Below are positions 15,599 through 58,433 of a DNA stretch of 64,000 bases, piece by piece. Under the pieces are notes generated by a model. It was not told the DNA's origin. It did no database searches and saw only the letters and a list, made by a program, of their open reading frames with translations. Source of the DNA: Bdellovibrionota bacterium (GTDB lineage: Bacteria; Bdellovibrionota_C; UBA2361; OMII01); NCBI GenBank assembly GCA_044360075.1, contig JBIKLA010000018.1, positions 2,053 through 66,052 of the forward strand, written 5' to 3'. Every line of letters begins with the position of its first letter. Position 1 is the first letter of the stretch. Position numbers and translations under genes: made by a program.

Positions 15599-17395
15599 TT
15601 AGAGGTTAAATCGTGCTCCCGATGCGGTCATGTATGTAGTCGTCCCTGAGCCGTCATCGAAGAAGGCCCGGGGGTGGGGGGTGCGGGTCGGCCTCGGAGT
15701 CTTGGTGGGCCTCGGAGTGCGGGTCGGCCGTCGAGTGGGTCGGGCGGTTGGTGTTCGTGTTGGCCTGCGGATTGGCCGGGGAGTGGGGCGCTTCGTTGGC
15801 CTGAGGATTGGCCTGCGGGTAGGCGTGGCCGTCGGTGTCGCCGTCGCGGTTAGCGTTTCAGTCGGCGTGGCGGTTGGGGTGTTCGAGGGAGTAACGGTTG
15901 GGGTTGGAGTCGGATCTCCTGGGTTCTGGGTCGGAGTCGGAGTCGGAGTGTCTGTGGATGTTGCGGTCGGTGTTGACGTTGCCGTTGGAGTCCTGGTTGG
16001 TGTGGCCGTAGCGGTTGGCGCAGGAATATTTCCCGCGCAGTAAGCCGCTGCCGCAGCGATCACACCCGGACCATTGGCGATCGCTCCGGTTGCGACGAGA
16101 CCGCTCAGCGACGGGTAGCTCGTTCCGGTGAGGAGCACGCTGTTAATAAGCTCCGTGACGGAGAGCGTGCGGTTACACACCGATTGCGCCAGGACGAGGA
16201 GCCCCGTGATCTGCGGGGCGGCCATTGAGGTGCCGCTTAAGTAGGCGTATTGGTTTGTGGGGTAGGTGGATGCGATGTCGCTGCCGGGAGCGGAAATATC
16301 CACGGTGTTGACGCCGTAGTTTGAGAAATAGGAAAGATCGCCATCGCTCGTGTTTGATGCGACTGCGATGATGTTGCTTGAGTTGTAGCAGGAGGGGTAG
16401 TTCGCGGTAACGTCGGTGTTAGTCGCCGAGTTTCCGGCAGCCGCAACGAAGACAACACCGGCGGTCCCCGCGTACTGAATCGCTGAGAGGAGGGACGAGC
16501 TAAATCCCCCTCCGCCCCAAGAGTTATTGCTTGCGATGAGGTTGACGCCGCGCTGGCGCATGAGCGAGCCGTAGTCGATGGCCCTGATCGCATTCGCCGT
16601 CGAGCCGCTTCCTGTGGCGCTCAGGAACTTGCCCGCCATGATCTTGACGTTCCATGCAACGCCAGTAACACCGACACCGTTGTTTCCGACCGCGCCGATC
16701 GTCCCCGACACGTGTGTGCCGTGGTATTGATCCTCCATCGGATCCCCATCGTTGTTGCGGAAGTCGTAACCGTAGACGTCGTCGATAAACCCATTGGCGT
16801 CGTCGTCAATGCCGTTGCCAGCGATTTCGCCCGGATTTTGCCACATGTTGGCAGCAAGATCGGGGTGGTCATACCTGACCCCTGTATCGATCACCTGGAC
16901 CACCACTTCACTTGATCCGGTAGTTGTGTCCCACGCAGTGGGAAGTCCCATTTGAATTGCGCCATACAGACTGCCGAAAGCGGGATCGTTCGGGGTTGTG
17001 TCGAGAGCCTTGACCTCCCAGTTCGGATCGCAACTGACATGCCCCCCGATCAGCTTCTTGAGCTGTCTCACCTTTGCCCGGCGGCACGGATCTGTCTTGC
17101 CTGAAAAAGGAACGGGCGCTTCCTGAGCTGCCTGAACACCGGCGCGAGCGCTTGCAGTGCGCTCCTTGACCAAAATGATTCCATCCATGAGGTGATGGGA
17201 CGATAGCCGAGCGGCACGCAGCGCATCGTTACGATTAAGGTCGGAGTTAATCCGTTTCGCGGCTTGCGATCTTCCGGTCGACTTCAAGATCGCCCCGGGA
17301 TACACCTGGCGCACATCGGCCGCAGCGGACGATGCCAGAAGCATCACCACCGTGACCGCCACTCCCAAGATGTGCGCCCTGAGCAGATAACGCAT
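15599..17395 (-). CDS. Secreted S8 subtilisin-like serine peptidase with Pro/Thr-rich tail (paralogue 1)
   Basis: Signal peptide ending AAA, catalytic triad VIDTG / HGTHVSG / GTSMAAP, oxyanion AAAGNS, PT/PR repeats, C-terminus RFNL. Confidence 0.95.
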
Positions 17396-17561
17396 AAAAG
17401 AACCTTATAATGCATGTCGGAAGGATCTCCAGAAAAGTTGAGCCTTTAAGTTGCTTTTCTGGTCGATCAACAAAGCCAATGAAAAAGGAGATGTGGCGCT
17501 ATTCCGGCACAACGATCATGCAAGTAGGGGGGGAGGGGCGGCAACCGGGCGTTGAATGGCC

Positions 17562-56500: not shown

Positions 56501-58433
56501 GTAGCACATCAAGAAGAACCTGCGGCGCTGACACGGCCTTGAATGACAGGATCCCGGCAAGCGTCTCCGGGGTTAGATCGGATGCTGGGGAGCCAGGGGA
56601 GCCGCTGCCGGAAACGAGGAGGTGAGAGACAAGATCGGTTAATTCCTCGCCCGCGACGTCGTTGGACACCGTTAAGACATGGTCCCGGAATAGCCCTAAT
56701 CTCTCGGCGTCCATGCCGGTTATTCGACCGTGCCGGTCCATGCTGCAGTGGTGCAGGAAGGAGCCGTCTTGGTCTTGGGGACCTGACGTTACGGATGAGA
56801 TAAGGTTTGAGCCACGCTGCTGAATCAGGCGGTCGAACGAGATAAGGTCGGTCCGACCGAGATAGCTCTTGGCCGCCAAGCGAATGCGCCTATCCGGAGC
56901 GAGCCCCATAATGACCCCAGCGAGGGCGATATCTGGATGGCTGTCGGCATGCTCAGCCATAAAATTCCACTCGCCGACCTGAGGCCGCTCGCGGGAAACG
57001 ATTTTCTCAACGCTAGGAAGCTTAAACGTGGGCCATGAGATGCAGCGCACAAACTCGCGCCCATCGACTGACGAGCACCACTCGAAGTTGTTGTAGAGTT
57101 TAACCAGTCTTGAGCAGGCGCTCTTGAGGTCGCGCAAGGACTCCTCCGCGGTCGCGTCCCTGACTTCGCGCATAGCCAGGCTAATCTCGCGGAAGGCCTT
57201 GCCGAGTGGGCGAATCCTATCGCTTGTGCCCGTCGCGGCAGATAGGGCCTCGTACATTGAGCTCATCGAGACCTGCGGAGTGTGTGCCGAAAATGAGCTG
57301 TCCTTCTTGAGTGACTGAAAGAAAGAGGAGAGCTCGTTTACCCAAAGGTCGATAGACGCTCTGTCGGCTTTGCGGTCGACGCTTAAACCGATGCTGGCAA
57401 GCTCTTTGGCAAGATCGGCTGCCCGCACCGGGAAATCCGTTCCGATCTGCCCTATAGTTTTGAAGAGAAGGTCTGCTTTATCGTGGGGCTCCATCGATGT
57501 GAAGCCGACTTGGCCCTTCAGCTCATCGAGGAAGCTTATGTGTTTGGCGGCGCGTAGGGTATCGATGAGGCCGTCTGGAAGCGCTGTGCGCTCACCGCGC
57601 TTTGCCGACACGGCGCCAATCGATTGGCCCAGCTCCGTGAGCGCCGCCTCGTACACGGACTGACGGGAGGAGCCCGTCAGATGCGCATCGAAAAGCTCCC
57701 CCCAGGTCGGGCGCTGGCCGCGGCTGCCTCGCAGGCGCTCATCAAACTCCAGGATAGCTGCAGGATCTTTGCCGATGTAGTGAAGAAGCCGCATGGGAAT
57801 TGCGTCGCAGAGCGCCTCCTCCGGTTTAGAGCTTGGGCCGTCACCGTGCAGATCTCGGAACTTCGCGTGTGTCAGCTCGTGGCCAAGGACAATCATCAGG
57901 TCTTCCTCAGACTGTACCGGAACCTTGCCGTGGGGCTTCTGCGGCTTGAACAGCCCCTCGTTTAGGATGATGGTCGAAGGACAGCTCCTGAGGCACATCG
58001 CGTTAGCCTGGTCGCTCTTCGAGATCAGGAAGCGCACCGGAGCTGCGTCAAAGTCGTGAATGAGCAGTGCAGCGAGGCTCTCTGACTGCTTTGAACGGCC
58101 CGAAACGACTTCGTCTGCGGTGTAGAGGCGGCGCGCGATGCTCTCACAGATCTTTTGGAAGACGAGGCCCTCCCTGCTCTGGGGATCAACGAGCCGAAAC
58201 TCCTCGCGCAACTCATCCGGGATCTTGCCGGCTTTGAGGTCAAGGTCCATGCGCTGGGTTTGTTCGTGGTAACTAGAGTACCGCTGGGGAGCTATCGACG
58301 ATGAGACCTGCAAGGGCGTTGGTATAGCCGAAGCGGGTACAGATTGGCTGGGCCCCTCGGAGAGAGGTGCGGCGCGCTCGGGCGTTTTCTCCAGAGGAGC
58401 GCGCTGATTCTTTGCTGTCGCGTCGAGTCCCAT
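53559..58433 (-). CDS. 1624-aa protein: N-terminal M48-like metallopeptidase, long helical middle, C-terminal ABC1/AarF-like kinase fold
   Basis: ANAMC...IILNEGL...LGHELTH...EEALCD (M48 pattern) and GPAEIKFVQ...RRP...ESNF...MSEMKG...DCDRHGGQ...FDFK (ABC1 pattern, divergent). No signal peptide. Confidence 0.75.
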   Translation of the reverse strand: MGLDATAKNQRAPLEKTPERAAPLSEGPSQSVPASAIPTPLQVSSSIAPQRYSSYHEQTQRMDLDLKAGKIPDELREEFRLVDPQSREGLVFQKICESIARRLYTADEVVSGRSKQSESLAALLIHDFDAAPVRFLISKSDQANAMCLRSCPSTIILNEGLFKPQKPHGKVPVQSEEDLMIVLGHELTHAKFRDLHGDGPSSKPEEALCDAIPMRLLHYIGKDPAAILEFDERLRGSRGQRPTWGELFDAHLTGSSRQSVYEAALTELGQSIGAVSAKRGERTALPDGLIDTLRAAKHISFLDELKGQVGFTSMEPHDKADLLFKTIGQIGTDFPVRAADLAKELASIGLSVDRKADRASIDLWVNELSSFFQSLKKDSSFSAHTPQVSMSSMYEALSAATGTSDRIRPLGKAFREISLAMREVRDATAEESLRDLKSACSRLVKLYNNFEWCSSVDGREFVRCISWPTFKLPSVEKIVSRERPQVGEWNFMAEHADSHPDIALAGVIMGLAPDRRIRLAAKSYLGRTDLISFDRLIQQRGSNLISSVTSGPQDQDGSFLHHCSMDRHGRITGMDAERLGLFRDHVLTVSNDVAGEELTDLVSHLLVSGSGSPGSPASDLTPETLAGILSFKAVSAPQVLLDVLRTPGASCDPELLKVVLENSHFIVMHAKNASIALSHKEEFTERNILDLFAALSAAKASNRPLYDAVVELLPSKSFQLYYRDPHVERDARASSSQKTVTSPLRAFVTTLAPDLSDDQIRSVVRQAATETNNYVPDEMRSLCEKRLGYPKQISAKALLQWIDSQPQNSLFTDWDSISDGAPGSQSISGSMALCTTDLLGILQSGSLTSSDLVTIASICKRLEMGFNDPWRFLTSSEISPLIAKIPFEQDGPSVPDLARAWRDLYALDLLGTKAEERFLAHILSSIEKLELPSEPRRAALERLLSGSRIRQPELRDRIISMWVKDAALTLGADDRSEGFRRRVEERIQPLVDSTAGADLQQLGFELAESLLSQRECSMTIERLVQSSRAFSKFSLLALGHDAEALITVVKAHEEERNRFLRYLLSEGTPAETADLTEQIVHMLPQTGASARGFDDLESASRMITRNTLKMLHKEFWRLPLEGRALFAKELLPTAARLSVDNSFDFVVEAVLPPSMPHHAATRDLLKRYVHALPEHAQHLALVALLTAGQPGRQAATTPGAILAKFAESQGPAEIKFVQVLMDAPGLPDDFRRDLIEHARHLKYKTQAPSRAQIFRLLDIIEARDGVSFGHIGKLRGCGSMNIVVEVNEGLLCLRRPNCQARAEDGFDIMLRMVASMDKDDPIAQSIRPIITDARERASLESNFWVSKAQYERAAANYRGFVAHVDGHAIPLDSAEVFRSGEDFFTMSEMKGEHFITRLERDGTTPELQRMAKAILAREFNAILKGEFDCDRHGGQIAIGKGIGHFDFKAMALEQWSHDDHRQLAKVLISTAMLCSSPSDIAPVMVGILGQLREQGIPVSKMVTEAQKAILSLGDYFKALAPMSSETLMQLLTSGLSADMPPSLQQLYAEECADIVMPFIKKNSGIFGGMVPKKAVSALLRETIANGAPSPAIAKVLPKALQALLPNPKTRIRFERLPRPSSGGS

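Follow-up and report, generated by a model that had tools for sequence, protein, structure and literature searches.

A T3SS-like sigma-SctV operon, a Tad tip cassette and a FlgO-type lipoprotein pair as probably separate modules of a genus-collinear chromosome segment in an uncultured bacterial lineage

The window analysed here is a 64,000-nucleotide stretch of a Bdellovibrionota genome (C54:2053-66052 of a 3.28-Mb assembly that is 98.9% complete). Its 43-kb stretch 15599-58433 (window positions) carries a Tad minor-pilin tip cassette, a T3SS-like operon (T3SS: type III secretion system) headed by a sigma factor, and a pair of FlgO-type lipoproteins, together with proteases, a giant protein and redox enzymes. 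A preliminary description had read these genes as one organised Tad and T3SS attack system and as the signature of a contact-dependent predator or symbiont. We find that the predator-like signature is a property of the whole genome and not of the window, because its parts are neighbours in this genus alone, where housekeeping genes surround them. The explanation that we regard as probable is an ordinary chromosome segment, collinear within the genus, in which three separate envelope modules are placed amid housekeeping genes, with the proteases, the giant protein and the redox enzymes as neighbours and not as parts of either machine.

Results and discussion

Only the sigma-SctV operon holds together outside the genus

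The 43-kb stretch was scanned with Pfam and NCBIfam profiles, and gene order was compared over at most 20 kb on each side of the SctV orthologue, contig ends permitting, in 12 further families belonging to this order. The wider frame was 124 species genomes of a single class, with 21 families in the order. Members of the lineage carry public labels as different as Oligoflexia bacterium and Candidatus Dadabacteria bacterium, and the genome's flagellar FlhA has its nearest relatives in sequences from Thermodesulfobacteriota, Bdellovibrionales and 'delta' MAGs. The genes at the centre of this comparison are the following, all on the plus strand:

36868-36894: sigma-28-type promoter GAAAC-N15-CCGAACA, 13 nt upstream of the sigma open reading frame (ORF) and conserved in genus alignments
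36907-37737: divergent FliA/WhiG-like sigma factor at the operon head (Sigma70_r2 and r4; TIGR02479 95 bits, cut-off 190)
37670-38548: SctJ-type inner-membrane ring lipoprotein (YscJ_FliF 47 bits; TIGR02544 77.7 versus FliF 18.9; lipobox LAAGC and a C-terminal transmembrane segment)
38558-38806: 82-residue protein, an ORF in the public record, without family match
38800-39609: SctQ-like sorting-platform protein (FliMN_C 29.7 bits, TIGR02551 26.6; SpoA/FliN C-terminal domain only)
39681-40001: lineage-specific 106-residue protein, a candidate rod/needle-like subunit (invariant C-terminus ...SN..KS.HE..MAPIRN.R.G)
40053-41939: FHIPEP export gate of the SctV/FlhA family, 628 residues (FHIPEP 514.6 bits), third paralogue in the genome
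41936-42562: lipoprotein matching TPR families (lipobox LSGC), downstream of SctV in 11 of the 12 other families
42531-43601: 105-residue protein and a REC-DHp response regulator (HisKA without kinase domain) at the operon end (Response_reg 88 bits, HisKA 35 bits)

The order sigma-SctJ-...-SctV(-TPR) is intact in all 12 other families, in each of which the sigma gene adjoins SctJ, and outside the genus this operon, from the sigma to the TPR gene, is the only part of the 43-kb stretch that stays together. A homologue of the terminal response regulator adjoins it in three families (G019, G028 and G029) and lies about 18 kb off in G023, while S8 protease, hemB and bioB genes are near SctV in one other family each. 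No TadE gene occurs within 60 kb of the window-type SctV on the same contig in any of the 12 families, and no Tad gene of any kind within 20 kb of the window-type T3SS set. Within the genus the entire segment is collinear, housekeeping genes included, and therefore the proximity of tip cassette and T3SS operon there (7-18 kb between cassette and SctV throughout the genus) says nothing specific. By simple arithmetic, chance alone would place a tip cassette no further than 10.5 kb from any of five non-flagellar T3SS loci of a 3.28-Mb genome in about 3% of cases, and 0 of the 12 other families show this adjacency.

These observations bear directly on the earlier proposal of a single contact-killing apparatus in the window, in which the proteases, the giant protein and the stress enzymes would serve as effectors or for self-protection. 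The presence of all the named gene types inside 43 kb, the genus-wide closeness of the tip cassette to SctV and the S8 gene that adjoins the sigma gene in one of the other families (G023) speak for it, as does the dependence of the Myxococcus pilus tips on a T3SS (PMC12075869). Against it stand the zero count of TadE genes near SctV in the other families, the equal collinearity of the housekeeping genes in the genus, the absence of the giant in the nearest species and its patchy occurrence elsewhere, the lack of a common promoter motif, and the fusion of Tad genes to a different FHIPEP paralogue (see below). We accordingly consider a single apparatus quite improbable, and order-level synteny together with the flat GC content of the window (0.58-0.65) rules out one integrated island. 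That the genes are interleaved with housekeeping genes and not on an island, as the preliminary description had it, is borne out.

An old operon with a gate outside the known clades

The T3SS block is also old and vertically inherited, as had been supposed. Full-length SctV orthologues occur in all 31 relatives, with identities of 63-72% in the genus and 38-48% in the 12 other families, and they extend across the 21 families of the order with open frames of 594-655 residues. A few of the genus SctV rows have one or two stop codons in the aligned stretch, which we attribute to alignment edges. The open full-length frames throughout the order rule out a relic or pseudogene T3SS. The SctQ-like protein evolves fast, with 26-46% identity within the genus.

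By its gene content the operon reads as something other than a flagellar T3SS. Its ring protein is of the SctJ and not the FliF type, and genes for FliG, Mot, rod, hook and filament are absent from the block. What it has in common with flagellar export and its sigma-28 circuit is a FliA-family sigma, a promoter resembling TAAA/GAAAC-N15-(G)CCGATAA, an FHIPEP gate and nearby FlgO lipoproteins. With the injectisome (Sct) it shares the SctJ ring lipoprotein, the SpoA domain of SctQ and the SctV gate in the window, as well as SctR/S/T/U, SctL/N, SctI-like and SctP-like genes elsewhere in the genome; unlike the injectisome, SctC, SctD and translocon were not found, SctF is represented only by a candidate and SctU is split.

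The gate itself fits neither class closely. It scores 453 bits with the FlhA model versus 447 with the HrcV model, both under the cut-offs, and is equidistant from FlhA and SsaV/YscV (sequences from the PDB). In a tree of 60 sequences the window SctV forms its own clade with 100/100 support on a long branch. It falls outside the flagellar clade, which takes in the genome's flagellar FlhA on contig C10, and outside a weakly supported clade of myxobacterial, chlamydial and proteobacterial SctVs together with a further gate of this genome, encoded on contig C44. Grouping the window SctV with the C44 type, the other non-flagellar one, is not rejected by the approximately unbiased (AU) test (p-AU 0.43), and a lineage-specific duplication is therefore possible. 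Long-branch effects on the position of the window SctV are likewise possible.

The 106-residue protein belongs to a family with orthologues between SctQ and SctV across the order and at least 183 homologues, all unnamed. An AlphaFold2 model gives a disordered N-terminus and a long C-terminal helix (predicted local distance difference test, pLDDT, 86-94). The helix would fit a needle or rod subunit. Pfam, a PDB profile search and Foldseek gave no match for the protein, the PDB profile returning only tektin (E=0.3) and Foldseek nothing, and we did not retain the needle or rod assignment beyond that of a candidate.

The Tad-coupled gate is another paralogue

The genome has three FHIPEP, three FliP and two FlhB-type genes. 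A true flagellar set (FlhA, FlhB and FliP) is found on C10, and the remaining genes are scattered. C50 encodes SctI-like, FliK/SctP-like, SctR, SctS and SctT proteins and a split SctU, the 114-residue SctI-like protein matching T3SS_basalb_I weakly at 18.8 bits. C41 encodes a SctL-like protein and a second FliI/SctN ATPase (437 bits, above the NCBIfam cut-off). C39 encodes two FHA proteins, a second SctJ, a second SctQ, SctR and small membrane proteins. Finally, C44:74618-88976 has PP2C, FHA and Ser/Thr kinase genes upstream of Flp, CpaB, CpaF, TadB and TadC, directly behind which stand a 707-residue FHIPEP and a HEAT protein. A second Tad core, on C42, comprises TadZ-like, CpaB, CpaF, TadB and TadC genes. 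Two secretins (PF00263) are encoded, one PilQ-like by sequence reading and the other beside a T2SSE (PilB/GspE-type) ATPase, and no T3SS secretin SctC is among these two matches.

As a side observation, the SctU/FlhB homologue on C50 (C50:8786-13131) is divided into a membrane part of 266 residues and a C-terminal autocleavage part of 84 residues, and a gene for a 1064-residue GAF-PAS histidine kinase lies between the two.

The T3SS gate tied to Tad is the C44 paralogue and not the window SctV. The FHIPEP gene inside the CpaF-TadB-TadC operon is of the C44 type, and therefore the Tad-linked T3SS is not that of the window; the window SctV is thereby ruled out as a Tad-coupled gate. The claim of one organised Tad and T3SS attack system in the window is not supported, the closeness of tip cassette and T3SS operon being confined to the genus. 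The Tad-FHIPEP-HEAT adjacency of the C44 type is retained in all 12 other families, and in G019 an FHA-SctJ-SctQ-SctR operon of the C39 type, without SctU, follows directly behind it, collinear with the C39 operon of the present genome. The FHA, kinase and phosphatase genes beside the C44 Tad core suggest control by Ser/Thr phosphorylation.

What does stand, at the level of the genome, is the association of Tad with an atypical, secretin-less T3SS-like machinery and its co-inheritance: a Tad core, TadE genes (2 to 14 per genome) and both extra FHIPEP types are present in each of the 12 other families. The reference to a sigma-28 T3SS in the window holds in so far as FliA-like sigma, SctJ, SctQ-like and SctV genes form an operon, which is only half a system. 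By elimination, we pair this operon with the SctI/P-like and SctRSTU genes of C50 and SctL/N of C41; they are assigned to it since those of C39 and C44 make up the second set, and because of the proximity of SctN to the T3SS block in G030.

Likeness to the Kil pilus and its T3SS

In Myxococcus xanthus a Tad-like pilus, Kil, carries interchangeable KilL/M/N tips, which are rich in Cys and disulfides and whose genes lie away from the kil core; the tips need T3SS*, an apparatus without secretin, needle and translocon encoded by mxan_2434-2464 (PMC12075869). The present genome likewise combines a basal T3SS apparatus of SctJ, SctQ, SctV and SctN types, with neither secretin nor translocon, with Tad. 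It differs from T3SS* in that the genes are scattered over several contigs and do not form one cluster, in the FliA-like sigma and sigma-28-type promoter, and in the presence of a flagellum and a second non-flagellar set. Moreover, the window SctV groups apart from its myxobacterial counterparts, and it is the other set that is fused to Tad.

The minor-pilin genes of the window and a nearby glutaredoxin-fold gene are, in order of position:

27646-29547, minus strand: TadG/KilN-like large minor pilin, 633 residues (VWA 29 bits; weak TadE-like N-terminal helix, 17.5 bits; Cys-rich C-terminus)
29462-30118, minus strand: TadE/TadF-like minor pilin, 218 residues (TadE, PF07811, 26.9 bits; prepilin site G/ASFLEF)
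30118-30579, minus strand: TadE-like minor pilin, 153 residues (TadE, PF07811, 18.8 bits, below the cut-off, and 21.7 bits in a second scan; site G/AIFIE)
33238-33702, minus strand: membrane-anchored glutaredoxin-fold protein with a CxxC motif, CFEC (Glutaredoxin 25.9 bits; N-terminal transmembrane segment)

Judged from the genes, the first three have the makeup of a tip cassette, namely adjacent TadE-helix genes and one large, Cys-rich, variable subunit, so the earlier identification of a Tad tip cassette is upheld. Prepilin-peptidase sites of the form G/XXXXE were read by eye in both TadE-like proteins; in the 633-residue TadG-VWA protein the Glu of the site is missing. This protein contains 18 Cys, or 2.84% versus 1.21% in the proteome. 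Its homologues are detectable inside the genus only, where they are about 620 to 870 residues long and 33-48% identical, compared with 63-72% for SctV. A Tad core (Flp, CpaB, CpaF, TadB and TadC), which such a cassette would need, is available in the same genome with the two cores on C44 and C42.

The resemblance to the Kil tips thus lies in three adjacent TadE/TadF/TadG-type genes of which the biggest is Cys-rich with a variable distal part, in the position of the cassette off the Tad core, in its fast divergence and in an apparently needle-less T3SS in the same genome. It is unlike them in that the TadG is genus-restricted in sequence and has a distal part with VWA, and in that no secretin can be recognised as belonging to either of the two Tad cores, while Kil possesses KilC.

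The glutaredoxin-fold CFEC protein shows the fast evolution of the tip genes (33-44% identity in the genus) and in G018 its gene directly abuts those of the tip. Instead of countering stress, it may assist the Cys-rich TadG in the periplasm as a thiol-disulfide helper. Elsewhere in the genome, at a distance from the Tad cores, C29:121463-123832 encodes a very Cys-rich protein of 789 residues with a TadE-type N-terminus and a G/SYLLE site, which may be a second large tip pilin.

A FlgO-type lipoprotein pair near the operon

The third module lies downstream of the T3SS block:

48442-49137, minus strand: second lipoprotein, divergent partner of FlgO (lipobox LLSSC; weak GNA1162-like match, E=0.035)
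49147-50073, plus strand: FlgO-family lipoprotein (FlgO 113.4 bits)
50642-52134, plus strand: two proteins of 229 and 259 residues without family matches

FlgO and FlgP, in some cases with FlgT, are outer-membrane-associated flagellar ring proteins of Vibrio and Campylobacter. The present pair resembles them in the strong Pfam FlgO match and in the pairing with a small second lipoprotein; it differs in adjoining a non-flagellar T3SS-like operon and in a partner that is not recognisably FlgP. The second lipoprotein, which is hidden in a simple ORF list, is 49-75% identical in the genus and adjoins FlgO in G030 and G020, and with it the FlgO-fold lipoproteins of the preliminary description are confirmed in the plural. 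In these same two of the 12 other families FlgO lies 1.5-5 kb from the T3SS block, and in G030 the 10 kb that separate SctN from the block contain the FlgO pair and, between FlgO and SctN, a homologue of the 229-residue protein. Such gene neighbourhoods suggest that the FlgO-type pair tends to travel with the sigma-SctV operon.

A sigma-28-type promoter and candidate cargo

Sites resembling the sigma-28-type promoter precede the sigma gene in five to six of the 12 other families. In the present genome, 7 of the 23 GAAAC-N15-CCGA[AT] sites are in promoter position versus 6.5% expected, and control patterns gave 1/11 to 1/25. The motif-bearing promoters include those of the sigma operon, of sctL-sctN on C41, of a pesticin-type gene and of a DUF1521 gene, and a variant precedes the C39 operon. 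No GAAAC-N15-CCGA-type site was found before the tip cassette, the S8 genes, FlgO, Bcp or the giant. The classic TAAA-N15-GCCGATAA pattern yielded merely two unrelated sites, and a role of the motif as flagellin promoter was dropped, as it is not found upstream of either of the two flagellin genes.

Two of the genes with a GAAAC-N15-CCGAAC promoter, both located by their coordinates in this genome (G000), encode a leaderless pesticin-type lysozyme-like protein of 241 residues (C25:97390-98115) and a DUF1521 protein with a GDPH motif (C35:115160-116110). DUF1521 is the domain of the rhizobial T3SS effector NopE1. The pesticin-type muramidase and the DUF1521 protein are candidates for T3SS cargo, or else for flagellar or assembly factors.

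The same promoter lends some weight to a different picture, that of a motile heterotroph living freely, whose T3SS-like set would be a flagellum-derived exporter within the flagellar sigma-28 hierarchy that builds or serves an envelope structure with FlgO-type lipoproteins and a FlgJ-like muramidase, and whose Tad pili would be a means of adhesion. The sigma-28-type promoter ahead of a FliA-like sigma would be expected of such an organism, as would the FlgO-family lipoproteins by the block in three families, the motif-bearing DUF1521 gene next to hook-like flagellar genes and the complete heme, biotin and queuosine genes close by, and neither a secretin nor a translocon nor a recognisable effector was found in the window. 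This picture is harder to square with a ring protein that is an SctJ-type lipoprotein and not FliF, with the absence of rod, hook, filament and stator genes from both the block and the C50 cluster, with two flagellin genes that lack the motif, with a FHIPEP outside the flagellar clade, and with the fusion, in the same genomes, of another T3SS gate to a Tad core with FHA, kinase and phosphatase genes. We regard it as somewhat unlikely, though a possibility to be kept in view.

Proteases, the giant protein and redox enzymes

The remaining genes that the preliminary description had counted into its signature are these:

15599-17395, minus strand: S8 subtilase a, 598 residues (Peptidase_S8 162.5 bits; signal peptide; Pro/Thr-repeat tail ending in RFNL)
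17562-19667, minus strand: S8 subtilase b, 701 residues, a paralogue of subtilase a (Peptidase_S8 158.7 bits; TPTRTA-repeat tail ending in RFSL)
26595-27635, plus strand: MsrB-MsrA fusion (SelR 163 bits, PMSR 212 bits; 70-77% identical and syntenic in the genus)
47648-48406, plus strand: Bcp peroxiredoxin with a histone-H1-like tail (AhpC-TSA 109 bits; HC2 21.6 bits, below the cut-off)
53559-58433, minus strand: accessory giant protein, 1624 residues (HELTH/M48-like N-terminus, long helical middle, degenerate UbiB/ABC1-like C-terminus)

They stand among genes of general metabolism. After the S8 pair come hemC, hemD, serS, hemE, a ccsA-like gene and hemA, followed by the MsrB-MsrA fusion. Between the tip cassette and the T3SS operon lie queF, a gene for a protein of 407 residues without assigned role, the glutaredoxin-fold protein, bioB, a HAD hydrolase gene and hemB. 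The end of the 43-kb stretch holds two genes of no known kind, a GNAT gene and the giant.

The two subtilases are clear as proteases, with their surface location left as a conjecture of the earlier text. In a crude proteome of this genome only these two paralogues finish in the short RF(N/S)L tail, which may serve them as a private tag for sorting or anchoring.

The giant had been called a protease-kinase. Its HELTH motif and borderline M48 match (20.5-23.2 bits, at the cut-off: 20.5 vs 20.3) weakly support the first half of that name. The kinase half gave no Pfam match at E<=1, PF03109 included. Set against the UbiB/ABC1 features KxGQ, beta3 Lys, HxDxHxGN catalytic loop and DFG, it offers degenerate motifs: IKxGQ-like in relatives, LLCLRRP without Lys, DCDRHGGQ and DFK. 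A profile of six giant homologues retrieved only COQ8B, weakly (E=0.19). A kinase fold was not adopted, the single-sequence AlphaFold2 model being unusable (pLDDT 37) and a phmmer search of the PDB finding no match. Homologues of the giant are partial, 26-31% identical, and occur in 5 of 30 relatives, and the closest species (G007) has neither the giant nor the adjoining GNAT gene between the corresponding flanking genes, so that an accessory gene was inserted or deleted here at species level.

As for oxidative-stress enzymes, the MsrBA fusion, the glutaredoxin-like protein and a Bcp whose tail is rich in Lys and Ala are indeed present, whereas the histone match (HC2) stays under the cut-off and no link to the machines emerged. 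The tail of Bcp comprises 70 residues and is rich in Lys, Ala and Pro (KKAPVKKAPVKK...), with Bcp conserved at 54-76% in the genus, and the protein may be a nucleoid-tethered peroxidase. Three redox enzymes amid heme, biotin and queuosine genes are ordinary.

The giant also enters into a further alternative, that of a symbiont or pathogen of protists with an injectisome scattered in the manner of the Chlamydiae, through which eukaryotic cells would receive effectors, the giant for example. Scattered T3SS genes are a trait of the Chlamydiae, and here they are spread over at least five loci; the giant is leaderless and patchy in occurrence with protease-like and pseudokinase-like parts, and the genomes are small (1.5-4.8 Mb). 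Yet T3SS secretin, needle and translocon were not found, the genome encodes a full flagellum and broad biosynthesis, and neither of the extra FHIPEP types groups specifically with the chlamydial SctV, all of which makes this alternative very improbable.

Away from these genes, the window contains an isolated pair of tRNA genes, tRNA-Ile(GAT) and tRNA-Ala(TGC), at 9721-12034 in about 2.3 kb of weakly coding DNA. The duo is the usual combination of the 16S-23S spacer. A search for an rRNA remnant near the pair gave no match, even with relaxed thresholds, and an origin of the orphan pair from an internal transcribed spacer was set aside for want of such a remnant.

Three probable modules, and what weighs against them

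In the explanation that we favour, the tip cassette would cap Flp pili from one of the two Tad cores on other contigs, the window operon, together with the C50 and C41 genes, would make up a scattered, secretin-less, non-flagellar T3SS-like exporter of which the window holds half, and the FlgO-type lipoprotein pair would be a third module, with Tad and T3SS coupled at genome level through the other set, that of the C44 FHIPEP. By analogy with Kil and T3SS*, these machines may attack adjacent cells when they touch them: recognition and breaching of the target would fall to the Tad tip, and the T3SS-like gates would export leaderless cargo, including the pesticin-type muramidase and the DUF1521 protein, across the inner membrane. 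From the same analogy we tentatively infer a predator or symbiont lifestyle.

A bolder version takes the operon and its C50 and C41 partners for an unclassified T3SS lineage, secretin-less and with a gate outside the flagellar and the known injectisome clades, which would use an FlgO-type outer scaffold, be autoregulated through sigma-28, and export the leaderless muramidase and autocleaving DUF1521 protein for contact lysis of other bacteria alongside a second gate built into a Tad pilus operon. It is a speculative and unlikely proposal that we put forward with little confidence.

Several points weigh against the explanation in three modules. No SctD or translocon was found for the window T3SS set, nor a recognisable secretin of their own for the Tad cores on C44 and C42. 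The pairing of the operon with C50 and C41 rests on elimination and on one family (G030), and SctRSTU genes are beside the window-type SctV in no relative examined. The 106-residue protein is a candidate for the rod or needle by the shape of its modelled helix only. A pattern search confined to a single genome yielded the promoter motif, and several FliA-like sigmas could read it. The DUF1521 gene is beside genes that read as flagellar hook genes (FlgD/FlgE-like), and the muramidase could serve not as a weapon but in assembly, in the manner of FlgJ. Lastly, the genus-wide closeness of the tip cassette to SctV could reflect co-regulation.

Conclusions

A list of genes at the scale of a window is no proof of one system, and synteny across families separates a real operon from its neighbours. 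If the genome-level picture is true, an entire uncultured lineage would possess a flagellum, two stripped-down T3SS-like exporters and two Tad machines, and its combination of Tad with an atypical T3SS would be, by analogy, a variant of the Myxococcus Kil/T3SS* theme. A T3SS gate written into a Tad operon would then extend the theme of predation by Tad and a needle-less T3SS beyond the Myxococcota. Furthermore, such systems would offer natural intermediates for the question of how the injectisome arose from the flagellum, because the operon joins a sigma-28 circuit, an SctJ ring, the lack of a secretin and FlgO lipoproteins.

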